This document shows, in pieces, positions 522-6,699 of a stretch of 6,699 bases of DNA (the first letter of the stretch is position 1; every line of letters begins with the position of its first letter). The stretch lies in the IMG/VR virus record IMGVR_UViG_2529292716_000007; one strand, given 5' to 3'. This DNA comes from a virus. Its lineage: Duplodnaviria > Heunggongvirae > Uroviricota > Caudoviricetes. The position numbers were made by a program, and so were the translations under genes. The notes under the pieces are model-generated. The model did no database searches. It saw only the letters and a list, made by a program, of their open reading frames with translations, and was not told the origin of the DNA.

Positions 522-824
522 ATGAGCAGAAAAACCCAACGTTACTCTAAAGAGTTCAAAGCCGAAGCTGTCAGAACGGTTCCTGAAAATCAACTTTCGA
601 TCAGTGAAGGCGCTTCCCGATTATCTCTTCCTGAAGGCACTTTAGGACAATGGGTTACCGCCGCCAGAAAAGGGCTCGGTACTCCTGGTTCCCGCACGGT
701 GGCTGAACTGGAATCTGAAATTCTGCAACTGCGTAAGGCGTTAAATGAAGCTCGCCTTGAGCGAGATATATTAAAAAAAGCAACAGCGTATTTTGCACAG
801 GAGTCGCTGAAAAATACGCGTTAA
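522..824 (+). CDS. IS600 OrfA, IS3-family transposase N-terminal HTH/leucine-zipper subunit
   Basis: 100-aa ORF MSRKTQRYSKEFKAEAVR... with an HTH and a C-terminal leucine-zipper-like segment (LQLRKALNEARLERDILKKATAYF), the conserved IS3-family OrfA architecture. An A-rich SD-like stretch (AGAAGGAG) lies upstream at about 508-515. Confidence 0.85.
   Translation: MSRKTQRYSKEFKAEAVRTVPENQLSISEGASRLSLPEGTLGQWVTAARKGLGTPGSRTVAELESEILQLRKALNEARLERDILKKATAYFAQESLKNTR
773..780 (+). other. Putative -1 programmed ribosomal frameshift site (A AAA AAA G) joining orfA and orfB
   Basis: A7G run at 773-780 sits in the orfA 0-frame (TTA AAA AAA GCA). A -1 slip puts the ribosome into the orfB frame (start positions congruent to 2 mod 3). 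Position near the 3' end of orfA matches IS3-family frameshift windows. Confidence 0.6.
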
Positions 825-859
825 TCGAACAATGGCGACAACAATTTCCCATTGAAGCG

Positions 860-1678
860 ATGTGTCAGGTATTTGGTGTATCCAGGAGCGGTTATTACAA
901 CTGGGTACAGCATGAACCCTCAGACAGAAAACAAAGTGATGAGCGGCTAAAACTGGAGATTAAGGTGGCACATATCCGCACTCGCGAAACATATGGAACC
1001 CGGCGGCTCCAGACGGAGCTGGCAGAGAATGGCATCATCGTTGGTCGTGACCGACTGGCACGTCTTCGTAAGGAGCTAAGGCTACGCTGTAAGCAGAAAC
1101 GCAAGTTCAGAGCGACTACGAACTCGAACCACAATCTGCCAGTTGCGCCAAATCTGCTGAACCAGACGTTCGCTCCTACAGCACCAAATCAGGTCTGGGT
1201 GGCGGACCTGACGTATGTTGCCACACAGGAGGGATGGTTGTACCTCGCTGGCATCAAAGATGTTTATACGTGCGAAATTGTCGGCTACGCCATGGGAGAG
1301 CGCATGACAAAAGAGCTGACAGGTAAAGCCCTGTTTATGGCGCTCAGGAGCCAGCGCCCACCTGCCGGGCTAATCCACCACTCTGATCGAGGTTCACAGT
1401 ACTGCGCATACGATTACCGGGTCATACAGGAGCAGTCTGGTCTGAAAACATCAATGTCGCGTAAAGGTAACTGTTACGACAACGCTCCGATGGAAAGCTT
1501 CTGGGGAACGCTGAAAAATGAGAGCCTGAGCCACTATCGTTTTAATAACCGGGATGAAGCCATCTCAGTAATACGGGAATACATTGAGATTTTCTACAAT
1601 CGTCAGCGTCGTCACTCTCGTCTGGGGAATATCTCCCCGGCAGCCTTCAGGGAAAAATATCATCAGATGGCTGCTTAA
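860..1678 (+). CDS. IS600 OrfB, DDE transposase catalytic domain, normally made as an OrfAB fusion by -1 frameshifting
   Basis: 272-aa ORF in the -1 frame relative to orfA. It carries the DDE triad context (WVADLTY, HHSDRGSQY, ESFWGTLKNE) typical of IS3-family transposases. The frame is open upstream of the first ATG back towards the slippery site, so the biological product probably spans 522-1678 with a shift near 773-780. Confidence 0.85.
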   Translation: MCQVFGVSRSGYYNWVQHEPSDRKQSDERLKLEIKVAHIRTRETYGTRRLQTELAENGIIVGRDRLARLRKELRLRCKQKRKFRATTNSNHNLPVAPNLLNQTFAPTAPNQVWVADLTYVATQEGWLYLAGIKDVYTCEIVGYAMGERMTKELTGKALFMALRSQRPPAGLIHHSDRGSQYCAYDYRVIQEQSGLKTSMSRKGNCYDNAPMESFWGTLKNESLSHYRFNNRDEAISVIREYIEIFYNRQRRHSRLGNISPAAFREKYHQMAA

Positions 1679-2603: not shown

Positions 2604-2759
2604 TTACTTCCTGGATTCGTAGTCTACGAAGACAGCGACCTCCGTCTGGCCGGTTCGGATTCGTACCTCACAGAGGTCTTTCCTCGTTACCAGTGCCGTC
2701 ACTATGACGGTTAAACAGATGACGATCAGGGCGATTAACATCGCCTTTTGCTGCTTCAT
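2604..2759 (-). CDS. hok: Hok/Gef-family type I toxin (small membrane-depolarising peptide)
   Basis: 51-aa product MKQQKAMLIALIVICLTVIVTALVTRKDLCEVRIRTGQTEVAVFVDYESRK: single transmembrane helix plus the conserved RKDLCEVRIRTGQTEVA Hok/Gef periplasmic motif, recalled as near-identical to chromosomal Hok proteins (HokD/RelF, HokC/Gef). AAGGAG SD lies 9 nt upstream of the ATG. Confidence 0.9.
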   Translation of the reverse strand: MKQQKAMLIALIVICLTVIVTALVTRKDLCEVRIRTGQTEVAVFVDYESRK

Positions 2760-2816
2760 AGCCTGCTTCTCCTTGCCTTTCGGCATGTAAGAGGCTAACC
2801 TACATGTGCAAAGCAT
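2604..2816 (-). CDS. mok: Mok-like leader ORF, in-frame N-terminal extension of hok (MLCTCRLASYMPKGKEKQA-Hok)
   Basis: 70-aa ORF from the track; the ML.TCR...K.KEK.AMKQ pattern resembles chromosomal MokC as I recall it. GAGG lies about 9 nt upstream. Assigning a Mok role is by analogy only. Confidence 0.5.
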   Translation of the reverse strand: MLCTCRLASYMPKGKEKQAMKQQKAMLIALIVICLTVIVTALVTRKDLCEVRIRTGQTEVAVFVDYESRK

Positions 2817-2935
2817 GAAATTGGCCTCAGATTAATGTTAAGCGTCTTGCCGGACGCGTAATGTTAACTGGGGCTTTTCTCTATCTGCCTTTTGGTGTTC
2901 ATGCCTGAAGCAGATAGCCTCAAGCACCCGCAGTC

Positions 2936-2986: not shown

Positions 2987-3673
2987 TCACTCCTTCTCTT
3001 CTTTACCGTAGTGGAGTTGACCAATTTTGATAAGAGGGCGTCCCTGAGATTTGCGGTGTAGATTGGTATCGCGCAGAGAATACACACAGCCACAATATTC
3101 CTGCTGATAGAATTTTTCGCGCTTGCTGATTTCAATCATACGGGACGAGCCGCCCTGCTTGCGCCAGTTATAATCCCAGTACACCATGCCCGGATAATGC
3201 GCGACGGCTCGCCGCCCACAGTCGTTAACCTGCTGCATATTTTTCCAGCGTGAAATGCCCAGTGAACTGCTGATCACACTGAAACCATTTTCAGCGGCGT
3301 ACAGCGCTGTCCGCTCAAAACGCATGTCAAAACACATGGTGCAACGGATCCCTCGTTCGGGCTCCCATTCCATTCCTTTGGCTCGTTCAAACCAGTTGTC
3401 TGTGTCGTAATCAGCATCAATAAACGGCACGCCGTGTTGTTCAGCAAAGCGAATATTCTCATCCTTACGAATTAAATACTCTTTCTGAGGATGAATGTTC
3501 GGGTTGTAGAAAAAGATGGTGTAGTCGATTCCCGAGGCCTGAAGCGCCTCCATCACCTCACCGGAACATGGAGCACAGCAAGAGTGCAGTAGTAGTTTGT
3601 TTGCCCCGTTTGGGAGCTCCAATTTGGGCCGTTTGAAATCAGCAACTGTCATAAATATGTTTATTGGGGTCAT
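2987..3673 (-). CDS. DUF208/QueH-like (epoxyqueuosine reductase family) putative Fe-S protein, 228 aa
   Basis: ORF with an N-terminal [14 protein letters not shown] motif that I recall as the cluster-binding signature of the QueH/DUF208 family, plus further Cys pairs (CTMCFD, CGCVY). Assignment is from motif memory only. No convincing SD before either candidate start (3673 or 3652). Confidence 0.55.
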
Positions 3674-3792: not shown

Positions 3793-3821
3793 ATTAAATT
3801 TTTAACAGTGCTAAATTTAAT
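3793..3821. promoter_or_regulatory. 9-bp perfect inverted repeat ATTAAATTT-N11-AAATTTAAT; candidate operator/protein-binding site
   Basis: Seen directly: 3793-3801 is the reverse complement of 3813-3821, separated by 11 bp, in an AT-rich intergenic stretch at the stop of the 3821-4234 ORF and upstream of the QueH-like gene. Confidence 0.3.
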
Positions 3822-4234
3822 TATTCAGTTCTGGATTTTGTCGCCCTGCGTATCCGCGCTTTCGCGTTACGCTCAATCTGTATCAGCTTTTCTATATTTC
3901 TCCGCCTTTCCTGTTCCTCCTGGCGCAATAGCCTTACATCATCTGCCAGTCTGGTTTCTCTTTTTGCCACAGAGAGCATCCAGTCAAACGGCTCCACAAC
4001 CGCACCGCAGATTTTACAGCGGACCTGACGCTCTTTTTCGTCAACCCGTACAGAGGCGTGATGGCAATATGGTCTTTCCGATGGCTCATAAAGAAAATTA
4101 ACCTGATTACGAGGGTCATCCTCTTTTACCGGAAATAAAACGATATTGCTTAACTCATCTTCTGGTTTTATTTCCATGCTCCTCTCCTTTGATGCGAATG
4201 CCAGCGGTAATTGAAGCCTGATAGCTAATTTCAT
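3821..4234 (-). CDS. Hypothetical small protein with putative zinc-ribbon (C-H-H...C-x2-C) and basic coiled-coil C-terminus
   Basis: ORF with an AGGAGG SD 11 nt upstream of the ATG at 4234, which directly abuts the stop of the upstream ORF. An alternative start at 4177 (MEIKPEDE...) has AAGGAG 6 nt upstream. Contains YCHHASVRVDEKERQVRCKICG followed by a charged heptad-like tail (LLRQEEQERRRNIEKLIQIERNAKARIRR). Family not recognised. Confidence 0.55.
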   Translation of the reverse strand: MKLAIRLQLPLAFASKERSMEIKPEDELSNIVLFPVKEDDPRNQVNFLYEPSERPYCHHASVRVDEKERQVRCKICGAVVEPFDWMLSVAKRETRLADDVRLLRQEEQERRRNIEKLIQIERNAKARIRRATKSRTE

Positions 4235-4657
4235 TCACAGTATCGCCTCCTGAAAATTACCCTGATAGAAAGCCAGTACACGCTGCATAGCTTCGCTCTT
4301 CCGGCACTCGCGACAGATTATATTCAGGCGCCTGTCGTAGCGGCGTATTTCTCCGTCAGGTAATGACCAGATAAGGTCCGGATCAACAACAACCGGTTTC
4401 CTCACCTTTACTCTCGAGAGTTTTTTGCGGGCGCTTTGCCAGTCCTTGCGAGCCTGTTCAGACGGGAATAAGCCGTAGCCAGAATTATATACATCACCAC
4501 TTGCGACCAGTTCTATGCATAAGCGACCGACAGACGCACGACTGATACCTGTTTCATCTGACAACTGCCGAATCGTGACCCGACCGTCCTGATGCACGAG
4601 TTCCACAATTCGCGTCTTCAGTTCTTCCCGCTGTTCGGGAGTAAAAGGTTTCGCCAT
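4235..4657 (-). CDS. Putative winged-helix DNA-binding protein, 140 aa (possibly YdaW-like)
   Basis: ORF with a strong SD (CAGGAGG) 5 nt upstream of the ATG at 4657, 14 nt after the DnaC-like stop. The N-terminal region (RVTIRQLSDETGISRASVGRLCIELVASGDV) looks like an HTH/winged-helix. Position immediately downstream of the DnaC-like gene matches ydaW in the Rac gene order; homology not verified. Confidence 0.55.
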   Translation of the reverse strand: MAKPFTPEQREELKTRIVELVHQDGRVTIRQLSDETGISRASVGRLCIELVASGDVYNSGYGLFPSEQARKDWQSARKKLSRVKVRKPVVVDPDLIWSLPDGEIRRYDRRLNIICRECRKSEAMQRVLAFYQGNFQEAIL

Positions 4658-4671
4658 AAATCCTCCTGAAA

Positions 4672-5418
4672 CTACTTAACAACCCTCGAATGGCTAACAT
4701 TCGGACGCCAGCTCTCCCAGTTAAAATTCACCCAGCGCCCGCCGTTCATGACCATGCGATCCATCACCCGCTCGCCGAGCAATGTTTTCATCACCTCATA
4801 GTTCAGGTTTGTCAGCATCCCCACGCTGCGCATCGACGCTGTCCGGCGATCAACAATCTGGTGCAGCACCACCTGCTCGTTTTTCGTCTCGCGCTGAATG
4901 CCAATTTCATCAAGAACCAGCAGATCCACTTCGCACAGCTCCCGCAAAAATTTTTCGCCTGACTGCCCGTCGTCATAGCTGGCGTGCAGGGCGCTCATAA
5001 CATCAGCCACGGTAACCACAATCACTGTCTGACCGTCTTTCAGCAGGCGATTCCCGATAGCTGCCGCTAAGTGATTCTTCCCGGTACCAGGTTTTCCGCT
5101 GAACGCAAAATTTGTACACCCGGTCATCAGTTCATCGGCGATGGATTTCGCCTGGCTTAACGCGTATCGCTGGCCGTCGTTCTGCACCTGGTAATTCGCA
5201 AACGAGCATTTACGGTGCAACGGCTGGATGCCTGAGCGATTCAGAATTTTTTCCACCCGCAACTGGCGATTCAGGCGGTTGATCTCCTCGCTACGTTTCT
5301 GGCCTTCAGCAAGTTGCCACTCGCGCCACTCCGCTACCGTTCTGAATGGGGCGGTTACATGTGGCGGGGTCAGTCGGCGGATGCGTTCCAGAACGCCGCC
5401 TGTCGCAATATTTTTCAT
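4672..5418 (-). CDS. ydaV: DnaC-like AAA+ helicase loader, prophage replication protein (YdaV-like)
   Basis: 248-aa ORF with Walker A (FSGKPGTGKNHLAAAIG) and Walker B (DLLVLDEIG), the DnaC/IstB-like ATPase fold. Length and N-terminus MKNIATG... match my recollection of Rac prophage YdaV. It follows the initiator gene with a 6-nt gap, as in phage O/P-type modules. Confidence 0.8.
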   Translation of the reverse strand: MKNIATGGVLERIRRLTPPHVTAPFRTVAEWREWQLAEGQKRSEEINRLNRQLRVEKILNRSGIQPLHRKCSFANYQVQNDGQRYALSQAKSIADELMTGCTNFAFSGKPGTGKNHLAAAIGNRLLKDGQTVIVVTVADVMSALHASYDDGQSGEKFLRELCEVDLLVLDEIGIQRETKNEQVVLHQIVDRRTASMRSVGMLTNLNYEVMKTLLGERVMDRMVMNGGRWVNFNWESWRPNVSHSRVVK

Positions 5419-5772
5419 GGTCCGTTACCCCCTGAAGCCTGGCGGGATCGCACTGTCCGGCAACGAGACGGTGTTAACCTGTCGGAGCAACGTCTCAGGC
5501 CGAACACCTTTCGGCGCGAACAGGCCCTGGTATTCATTGGCGATGCTGTGTCGAATCACCTGCTCAGGTGTAAAACCCTGCTGACGGAATTTTTCCAGTT
5601 CCCGTATCGCCCCGTTAGCGCCCTGCTCCGTTCGAATCGGTTTTCGCAATGCCTGTCTGAACCGGACCCACTCATGCCAGAGTGTTTCCGGCAACCAATC
5701 GGGCAGCTCAATAGCCTCCGGCTCGAATTTTTTAGACGCTCGTTTTTGGCGAGGGGGAGATCAGTATTTAGA

Positions 5773-5817
5773 TCTTCCTCTTCCTCTTCCTCTTCCTCTT
5801 CCTCTTCCTCTTCCTCT
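5773..5817. repeat. Hexanucleotide microsatellite (TCTTCC)7.5, i.e. (GAAGAG)n on the coding strand, encoding a poly-Glu tract
   Basis: Seen directly: 45 bp of perfect TCTTCC repeats. In the minus frame that is open across it, it reads as 14 consecutive Glu; the other two minus frames read (RG)n and (KR)n. Confidence 0.95.
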
Positions 5818-5960
5818 GGTAACGCTTTTTGATCCGTTTGTGTAACGCTGGCAGCGTTACCTTTTCGTTTCAGTTCGCGTATTTTTGTTACTCGCTCGTT
5901 TGTAACCGCCCGTTTTTTTTAGAGCTTTTTCCGTTATGACGTTCAAAGTTAGGTAGAGAA
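5818..5960. repeat. Iteron-like repeat cluster (GTAAC core, including a perfect 9-bp palindrome) adjacent to a T-rich tract; candidate phage origin embedded in the initiator gene
   Basis: GTAACGC at 5819 and 5842; palindrome GTAACGCTG-G-CAGCGTTAC at 5842-5860; TTTTGTTAC at 5882-5890; TTTGTAACCGCC at 5899-5910; then T8 and an AT-rich stretch at 5911-5960. Lambdoid origins lie inside the initiator gene as iterons plus an AT-rich region. Confidence 0.35.
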
Positions 5961-6085
5961 AGCCCTCCGTCATTTTCGACCAGCCATCCAACCTGAATTA
6001 ACGCATCAGCAAAACCAGACATAAAAGTGATGCGATCTATTGCACTTTTTGTAACGCCGCGAGCGTTACAATCTGCATTACCGTC

Positions 6086-6699
6086 TGGATTTGCCCCTAT
6101 ATTTCCAGACATCTGTTATCACTTAACCCATTACAAGCCCGCTGCCGCAGATATTCCCGTGGCGAGCGATAACCCAGCGCACTATGCGGATGCCATTCGT
6201 TATAATGCTCGAACGCCTCTGCAAGGTTCTTTGCTGCCGTTAACCCGTCTGGTTTGGGCATGATACTGATGTAGTCACGCTTTATCGTTTTCACGAAGCT
6301 CTCTGCTATTCCGTTACTCTCCGGACTCCGCACCGCCGTGTTCTTCGGTTCAAGTCCCAACATCCGGGCGAACTGGCGTGTTTCATTAGCCCGGTAGCAT
6401 GAACCATTATCCGTCAGCCACTCCACTGGAGACGACGGAAGATCGTTGCCGAAGCGGCGTTCCACCGCTCCCAGCATGACGTCCTGTACTGTTTCACTGT
6501 TGAAGCCGCCGGTAGTCACCGCCCAGTGCAGTGCCTCACGATCACAGCAGTCCAGCGCGAACGTGACACGCAGTCTCTCTCCGTTATCACAGCAGAACTC
6601 GAACCCGTCAGAGCACCATCGCTGATTGCTTTCTTTCACGGCCACTCTGCCTGTATGTGCCCGTTTCGATGGCGGTACAGCAGGTTTTCGCTCAAGCAA
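6086..6699 (-). mobile_element. IS2 (IS3 family), right-end portion; element continues beyond the window
   Basis: Plus strand from 6086 reads TGGATTTGCCCCTATATTTCCAGACATCTGTTATCACTTAACCC, the reverse complement of the IS2 right terminus (...GATGTCTGGAAATATAGGGGCAAATCCA) as I recall it, followed by the InsD coding region. Confidence 0.9.
6097..6699 (-). CDS. insD: IS2 transposase InsD (OrfB), 5'-partial at the window edge
   Basis: ORF product ...[31 protein letters not shown]...[31 protein letters not shown] matches the IS2 InsD C-terminal region from memory; stop at 6097-6099. Confidence 0.9.

Follow-up and report, generated by a model that had tools for sequence, protein, structure and literature searches.

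The 6,699-nucleotide stretch of viral DNA analysed here (IMG/VR record IMGVR_UViG_2529292716_000007, Caudoviricetes; its full length is called the window below) is a fragment of a Rac-like prophage heavily interrupted by insertion sequences. It contains the minus-strand remnant of a replication-initiator gene (5425..6085), and inside this remnant a set of GTAAC-centred repeats stands next to a homopurine tract. We consider it probable that the repeats and the tract together form a prophage replication origin located within the initiator gene, in the manner of oriλ, the origin of phage λ. The repeats themselves are real, non-random and under selection at the DNA level, and about this we have very little doubt.

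Repeats and palindromes in the window

A first-pass annotation of the window had reported at least five GTAAC-centred copies within about 100 bp and a perfect 9-bp palindrome at 5842-5860, and both observations were confirmed. On either strand, GTAAC occurs at 5819, 5842, 5856 (minus strand), 5887 (minus strand) and 5902, which equals five copies in 88 bp (5819-5906). The whole window holds 21 copies, compared to 7.8 ± 2.9 in shuffled sequences, and none of 200 shuffles reached 21. Three of the five copies (5819, 5842 and 5854-5860) extend to GTAACGC, while those at 5887 and 5902 match the 5-mer only. The palindrome at 5842-5860 has arms of 9 nt when a single central base is taken as the spacer, or of 7 nt (GTAACGC and GCGTTAC) with a 5-nt spacer. 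In the latter form, the 19-bp GTAACGC-N5-GCGTTAC, it has two perfect matches in the window (5842-5860 and 6051-6069), where 0.05 would be expected by chance even with 2 mismatches allowed.

The linker palindrome, which we call site 2, reads T GTAACGC TGGCA GCGTTAC C (5841..5861) and has perfect 7-nt arms, or 9-nt arms when extended. The second palindrome, site 1, lies in the sequence coding for the N-terminal domain (N-domain) and reads TT GTAACGC CGCGA GCGTTAC AA (6049..6071); its arms are also perfect, and it encodes CNARGVT. A terminal half-site, GGTAACGCT (AGCGTTACC on the coding strand; 5818..5826), directly abuts the homopurine tract. The 5-mer matches GTTAC (5887-5891) and GTAAC (5902-5906), together 5887..5906, are weaker and poorly conserved, and may be auxiliary half-sites. 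The motif at 5887 is polymorphic: of 39 haplotypes, 13 have A and 26 have T at gene nt 339, a change that flips the motif.

A degenerate extra half-site, GCATTACC, is present at 6075..6082, where many relatives have GCGTTACC. In the Rac-like clade it comes from a 12-bp insertion (four codons, ‘NAEC’) that duplicated the left arm of site 1 (gene nt 149-180 in Escherichia coli locus L004; window 6050-6082). Its GTAACGC has decayed to GTAATGC in the window, as it has in roughly half of the haplotypes, gene nt 153 being C in 20 and T in 19 of the 39 (half-site map ‘>150 >162 <174’). Relatives that IS2 has not truncated (L004 and L005, which are intact, and the frameshifted L001 and L003) also carry a third perfect palindrome, TGTAACGCTGCGAGCGTTACA, 13-33 bp upstream of the ATG. 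This copy is non-coding DNA directly before the Shine-Dalgarno sequence, and in the window it was lost to an IS2 element. Counting sequences present, the window thus has two perfect inverted repeats of ~19 bp and intact relatives have three, in addition to half-sites.

The element had originally been drawn at 5818-5960. Sites do lie there, but this extent is too narrow, as the second palindrome is ~210 bp away (6050-6070) and the third is upstream of the ATG in intact copies. A T8 run and an adjacent AT-rich segment had also been counted as origin parts. The T8 run is real (5913-5920) but is not an origin element: it is A8 on the coding strand, a +2 frameshift particular to the window copy at which the reading frame switches, and the same run is A6 in all 80 readable loci of the 87 related ones. 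The AT-rich segment (5921-5960) encodes a conserved peptide, LSLPNFERHNGKSSKK, and gave no separate evidence of being special. On these grounds, a window-specific frameshift and the coding of a conserved peptide, we rejected the T8 run and AT-rich segment as an unwinding element.

The initiator family and the placement of its sites

The intact initiator is 262 residues long (WP_001304174-type; E. coli loci L004 and L005), and an intact open reading frame (ORF) of 260-265 residues was present in 75 of the 87 related loci. The intact homologue matches PHROG 2509, ‘replication initiation protein’ (E 3e-88), and no Pfam family at E ≤ 0.01; when its N-domain was searched against Pfam and NCBIfam, nothing was returned beyond a weak DnaT C-terminal match. 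A structure model predicts a winged helix at residues ~16-91, and phrog_6451 covers residues 108-262 as a C-terminal domain of the YdaU type. Site 2, the terminal half-site and the tract occupy gene nt 367-430, between the winged-helix domain and the YdaU-like C-terminal domain. This bears out the initial placement of the repeats in the part of the phage initiator gene that codes for the linker, an arrangement like that of oriλ.

Homologues of the N-domain were collected from annotated phages (including TL-2011b, CP2, Olaya, PAN70, CBW1004C, Raharianne, ε15 and a Vibrio phage), IMG/VR viral contigs and one genome per GTDB species. Clustering at 85% amino-acid identity produced 60 protein clusters from Enterobacteria, Pseudomonas, Xanthomonas, Ralstonia, Vibrio, Planctomycetes and others. 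Across them, half-sites are grouped in two places, which we call cluster A and cluster B. Cluster A (gene nt ~138-198) encodes DGNAxxVT and codes for a predicted winged-helix loop of lower model confidence (predicted local distance difference test score, pLDDT, below 50 at residues 49-55 and averaging 55 over residues 51-60); the site 1 palindrome is conserved family-wide at gene nt ~149-161. Cluster B (gene nt ~345-405) lies in the linker, and site 2 is found at the same place (gene nt ~340-395) in at least 35 diverged protein clusters, with arms specific to each clade. Half-sites within a cluster are spaced 11-12 bp apart, typically in the order >>><<, and the array ends at the tract.

A search of a plasmid collection for the initiator family returned two matches. 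One of these is NC_015459.1, the ‘plasmid’ of Pusillimonas sp. T7-7 (locus L379, the same as L335), a 41,205-bp circle that is a complete phage genome. Its only recognisable replication genes, at 37307-38816, are the family initiator and a DnaC-like ATPase, accompanied by a GGTAACGC array and an AGAGA tract. This is suggestive, though not decisive, of a module able to maintain an extrachromosomal circle.

Selection on the repeats at the DNA level

Paired palindromes with identical arms of at least 6 nt were found within gene nt 1-600 in 36 of 59 cluster representatives. By contrast, the same test found such pairs in only 2 of 224 flanking 600-bp controls and in 1 of 1180 shuffles of these genes among synonymous codons. 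The codons used at site 1 point the same way. In the 29 protein clusters with GNAxxV[TS], Gly is encoded by GGT in 28 of 29 (20% elsewhere in the same genes; Fisher p 3e-17), Asn is AAC in all 29 (65% elsewhere; p 2e-5) and Val is GTT in all 29 (32% elsewhere; p 4e-14). At the junction with the tract, Leu and Arg are encoded by TTA and AGA, respectively, and this holds even where the host has 60-66% G+C. Synonymous positions in the arms are thus not free to vary, and conservation extends beyond coding constraint; the pattern that the first-pass annotation had named as refuting its reading was not observed. Among the 39 haplotypes of the Rac-like clade, variation falls at the centres of the spacers (-24 to -22; 168, 171 and 172; 377) and the arms are essentially invariant; this comparison offers too few third-position arm sites for significance and shows only that variation is concentrated in the spacers.

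The repeats could in principle be a by-product of constraint on the peptide (GNAxxVT and poly-Glu/REEKR) or of chance, with the DNA itself having no role. In line with this idea, sites 1 and 2 are in the same frame in the window and in 25 of 35 clusters, and the encoded CNARGVT and GNAASVT are similar. However, in the other 10 of the 35 clusters site 2 is read in a different frame (in TL-2011b, GNAGSVT at one site and VTPTAL at the other), and the copy upstream of the ATG is non-coding, so a repeated peptide cannot explain the sites. Together with the shuffles, which recreated the pair only once, the codons fixed against host usage and the expectation of 0.05 palindromes given above, this leaves the explanation with hardly any credibility, and a coding-only origin of the repeats was rejected.

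A structural role for the single strand fares only marginally better. Each palindrome could form a stem of 7-9 bp and thus act as a hairpin in mRNA or single-stranded DNA, affecting mRNA stability, translation, antisense termination or single-strand initiation. On the plus strand, 5842-5860 followed by CTTTTCGTTT scores as terminator-like, and arm changes between clades preserve complementarity. Yet this was one terminator-like match where 1.0 was expected, and other clades do not keep the T-run. Of 32 arm mismatches, just 1 was of the G.T type that RNA would tolerate, as counted from the listing of 19-mers, MAFFT having gapped the GTCCGC and GTAGACG classes. Many half-sites are solitary or arranged in direct-repeat arrays and so are unable to pair, and a purely structural function would not require the same sequence in both hairpins of one genome. 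There was also no Rfam match in window 5400-6130. We therefore regard hairpins as a very improbable explanation, and the RNA hairpin or terminator reading was rejected on the G.T count, the chance-level terminator score and the Rfam result.

What reads the sites

Arm sequences differ by clade, with GTAACGC, GTCACGC, GTGACGC, GTAGACG, GTCCGC and TGTCAC as the classes, and base changes are mirrored between the two arms. Within any one genome, the arm is identical in both clusters. Because the same arm recurs and changes symmetrically, these patterns point to one sequence-specific, symmetric reader per genome. The arm class follows the clade of the N-domain rather than the host: GTAACGC is common to E. 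coli, Xanthomonas, Pseudomonas and Planctomycetes, while Salmonella phage ε15 has GTCCGC. The neighbouring genes differ from phage to phage (ydaS/ydaT, a cytosine methylase, Roi, Rha), and the initiator is therefore the only constant candidate for the reader. In the complete genome of the Rac-like phage vB_EcoS-673R7, all 3 palindromes and 8 of 12 GTAACGC half-sites are at the initiator gene; in that of ε15, the corresponding numbers are 2 of 2 palindromes and 8 of 18 GTCCGC half-sites. Overall, these sequence patterns make it quite likely that the repeats are the initiator’s own binding sites.

Sites of this kind could instead be operators that control the replication genes, for example by autorepression in front of the ribosome-binding site and looping to the in-gene sites, with the origin located elsewhere. 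That the Rac-like palindrome stands 13-33 bp ahead of the ATG, immediately in front of the Shine-Dalgarno sequence, would suit this function, as would the spread of the sites over ~400 bp rather than the tight packing of oriλ. However, the upstream copy is limited to the Rac-like clade and a few neighbouring ones, whereas the two in-gene clusters are universal. Regulator genes next to the initiator vary among members and only the initiator is constant. Finally, a conserved homopurine junction shared by unrelated initiator families would not be expected of an operator. A purely regulatory role outside an origin is consequently unlikely in our judgement.

The homopurine tract

The first-pass annotation had mentioned a poly-Glu tract beside the repeats. 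This tract is real (5773-5817), but it had been treated as poly-Glu coding only. At the DNA level it is a homopurine tract, and it is this tract, on the side away from the T8 run, that is the conserved neighbour of the sites. In the window, it spans 45 nt (5773..5817, minus strand), reads (GAGGAA)n on the coding strand, where it encodes poly-Glu, and is homopyrimidine on the plus strand. It behaves as a hexanucleotide variable-number repeat, measuring 9, 15, 21, 27 or 51 nt in relatives, and its length changes in 6-nt steps that are always in frame, so that the length of the poly-Glu stretch changes too. This Rac-like (AGAGGA)n tract is the clade’s version of a family-wide (AGAGA)n tract, which adjoins the last half-site of cluster B in ~50 of the 60 protein clusters. 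In most clades the junction reads GCGTTACC-(T/A)AGAGAAGAGAAGAGAAGAGAA, and GCGTTACC followed by the purine tract is conserved in Enterobacteria, Pseudomonas, Xanthomonas, Planctomycetes and others. On average across 48 clusters, A+T content within ±900 bp peaks at the tract plus ~20 bp, where the excess is +0.18 to +0.22; the Rac-like (GAGGAA)n version is an exception.

The low-complexity peptide of these proteins follows from the repeat. A 5-nt unit is coprime with the 3-nt codon, so any frame of (AGAGA)n gives a repeated REEKR, and the 5-nt period therefore explains the conserved ‘LPREEKRREE’ motif.

The tract also extends beyond this family. An IMG/VR search with the 22-nt tract AGAGAAGAGAAGAGAAGAGAAG alone returned at least 120 stretches, of which 80 were examined. 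In 60 of these, the tract lies in an ORF of the same N-domain family, and some of the others are cut at contig ends. Ten of the other stretches were scanned, and at least seven match initiator or primosomal PHROGs (270, 9327, 2562, 22470, 3992 and 3729). Most of these genes carry a short motif of their own in 3-5 copies immediately upstream of the tract, such as GTCCCGAGA (three copies), ATCGCCCCCCGA (five) or CAACGCCATG (three) (loci L259-L338, e.g. L273, L279, L288, L293, L306 and L320). The tract thus accompanies variable site arrays generally in the initiator genes of phages, and it could be an unwinding or helicase-entry element.

For the tract taken on its own, another role is conceivable. 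It might be a shared ‘linker’ that promotes homologous exchange of modules consisting of an N-domain and its sites, rather than an unwinding element. It lies exactly at the mosaic junction, with the window gene sharing its C-terminal but not its N-terminal half with K-12 ydaU, and the same tract is found with several unrelated N-domain families. Yet selection for exchangeability would be weak compared to the near-invariance seen across phyla. Moreover, the tract abuts the last half-site, suggesting functional coupling, and when the Rac-like repeat unit became AGAGGA, position and purine content were kept. We consider an exchange linker rather improbable and retain the tract as a candidate unwinding or helicase-entry element.

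A putative origin and its relation to known systems

If the repeats and tract are an origin, it would work as follows. Dimers of the N-terminal winged helix would bind the 19-bp GTAACGC-N5-GCGTTAC repeats and the flanking half-sites, with bound half-sites about one helical turn apart, in clusters at nt ~150 and ~370 and, in the Rac-like clade, in a third before the start codon. The resulting nucleoprotein complex would open the adjacent homopurine/homopyrimidine tract, or hand it over. The DnaT/YdaU-like C-terminal domain and the DnaC-like YdaV would then bring in the host helicase. We infer three parts of this scheme, namely which protein binds, that unwinding occurs at the purine tract and that the region is active as an origin.

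The closest parallel is oriλ and its lambdoid and Shiga toxin (Stx) phage counterparts. In oriλ, in the middle of gene O, 19-bp imperfect inverted repeats are bound by O dimers beside an AT-rich tract (PMC7466680), and two iterons plus the AT-rich tract are enough for unwinding (PMC7466680). In both systems the origin, or its candidate, lies mid-gene in the initiator, between the segments coding for N-terminal DNA binding and for C-terminal contact with the helicase loader. At the sequence level, both have ~19-bp inverted repeats with a purine-rich tract beside the last site; in the λ sequence, the oriλ tract is also purine-rich on the coding strand. In both, mosaic exchange moves the N-domain as a unit with its sites. 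However, the layout here differs in having two clusters ~200 bp apart (and a third upstream in the Rac-like clade) in place of four tandem iterons, in having one cluster within the coding region of the DNA-binding domain itself, and in having a strict GA homopurine repeat, (AGAGA)n or (AGAGGA)n, in place of a plainly A+T-rich stretch. Homology of the initiator to λ O (Pfam Phage_rep_O) was considered and not supported: there was no Pfam match, BLASTP gave E 0.26 and hhalign gave a probability of 0.7%.

The prophage Rac of E. coli K-12 is similar in type, and an active, normally repressed origin, oriJ, has been reported for it (PMC3945230). Gene order is alike (ydaS/T-like genes, initiator, ydaV), and DNA identity is 93-96% over ydaV and the initiator’s C-terminal ~110 residues, which are nearly identical as protein; window 5400-5682 is 93.6% identical to K-12 ydaU/ydaV. 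The N-domains differ, however. The first-pass annotation had called the gene YdaU/O-like, which fails for the N-terminal domain: K-12 YdaU matches DUF1376 (E 3e-26), while the protein here belongs to PHROG 2509 and has no DUF1376 match. The window element is therefore not of K-12 Rac oriJ specificity. K-12 ydaU has no GTAACGC palindromes and instead contains five copies of the 12-mer TTGAACATCTGC (83-100% identical; locus L002 3440-3740, MG1655), three where the linker is encoded and two where the N-domain is. By the parallel in layout, these TTGAACATCTGC repeats could mark oriJ, whose exact position was not found in the literature searched.

Iteron origins of theta-replicating plasmids are a further point of comparison. 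They share initiator-specific repeats about one helical turn apart, a neighbouring element of lower stability and a predicted winged helix. By contrast, the repeats here are mainly inverted and lie within coding sequence, and the initiator, with its DnaT/YdaU-like C-terminal domain, would act together with a DnaC-like loader.

Several observations weigh against an origin. The distance from cluster A to cluster B ranges from 189 to 232 bp and up to 312 bp, and helical phase is not kept. Half-site classes coincide with clades, which makes covariation with the protein inseparable from shared descent. The Rac-like linker offers one full palindrome and one good half-site, compared to the four tandem iterons of oriλ, and the (GAGGAA)n tract of this clade and of the window is 50% A+T and thus not AT-rich. 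The sites could also serve autoregulation instead of initiation, or both. Finally, no binding or replication experiment on any family member was found in the literature, of which our coverage was incomplete.

Within the same incomplete coverage, we found no description of the half-site, the tract, the peptide motif or an origin of ε15, and the detailed RefSeq annotation of ε15 marks no origin. On balance, we favour an origin, and we put forward, as a tentative proposal with slightly less than even chances, that it represents an undescribed design common to a large, phylum-spanning set of phage and prophage initiators. Hypervariable in-gene half-site arrays, placed in the loop of the DNA-binding domain and in the linker, would be combined with a near-invariant (AGAGA)n tract as a common unwinding or helicase-entry element, and ‘REEKRREE’ (poly-Glu in the Rac-like clade) would be the translation of that tract.

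If this proposal is correct, it would provide a sequence rule for locating the origin and the initiator’s specificity class in thousands of temperate phages and prophages of Proteobacteria, Planctomycetes and other phyla for which mapped origins are lacking. It would also account for a conserved and otherwise puzzling low-complexity peptide by tracing it to a DNA element. Relic origins like the one in the window would become recognisable and could be fired in trans by a co-resident phage of the same specificity, which matters for prophage interference, for the amplification of chromosomal regions in situ and for ectopic copies of an origin that act as decoys. With two or three 19-bp sites and a GA tract, the element would also make a simple system for studying how DNA is opened by initiators other than that of λ.

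A probable relic origin in a broken initiator gene

The initiator remnant (5425..6085, minus strand) was delimited by alignment to relatives L001 and L003-L005 and by three-frame translation. It carries three lesions and switches frame twice. The first is truncation by IS2, which took the first ~48 codons and all upstream sequence; the second is the A6→A8 frameshift described above. The third is a 10-bp deletion (5753..5758; alignment columns 536-545) that causes the second frameshift, one CCCCCTAAAT unit having gone from between direct CCCCC repeats. The prediction that cis-acting repeats persist in spite of the broken gene was nevertheless correct, as the palindromes at 5842-5860 and 6051-6069 are both perfect. 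The putative origin in the window is a relic, because the third site cluster is lost and the initiator cannot be made: clusters A and B and the tract are intact, and there is no initiator in cis. Firing would require a co-resident phage of GTAACGC specificity to supply the initiator in trans.

Similar damage is seen in other copies. In two other E. coli strains, loci L001 (3026-3843) and L003 (1526-2307) carry independent frameshifts of the same gene, C5→C4 right after the purine tract, and many database proteins of the family are truncated at 130-220 residues. Given these frameshifts and truncated proteins, decay of the initiator gene seems common.

Neighbouring genes and prophage context

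Directly downstream of the initiator remnant lies ydaV, a DnaC/IstB-like helicase-loader gene (4672..5418, minus strand) recognised from Pfam IstB_IS21 and Bac_DnaA matches and annotated as ydaV in relatives; its product is the presumed partner of the initiator’s C-terminal domain. On the other side, the window closes with the end of IS2 (6086..6699, minus strand), a segment that begins TGGATTTGCCCC, contains rve domains and matches E. coli sequences annotated ‘IS3-like element IS2 family transposase’. The junction truncates the initiator gene 15 bp from site 1. The prophage has at least two insertion sequences, the other being an IS3-family element at 522-1678 (plus strand) with the usual two ORFs (HTH_Tnp_1 and rve), which resembles IS600, a likeness that would fit a Shigella source for the window. 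It adjoins the C-terminal part of a phage integrase (1-483, minus strand) that runs off the start of the window.

Further prophage genes, all on the minus strand, lie at 1675-2070 (a truncated DUF1367 gene), 3821-4234 (a small protein with a weak zinc-ribbon match) and 4235-4657 (a DUF977 winged-helix protein directly downstream of ydaV). The prophage also carries an intact gene for QueH, epoxyqueuosine reductase, as cargo (2987-3673, minus strand; Pfam E 2e-65). Finally, a hok/sok toxin-antitoxin locus is present at 2604-2929 (minus strand), with a Hok/Gef family ORF at 2604-2816 and the sok antisense RNA at 2754-2929 (Rfam RF01794, 117 bits).

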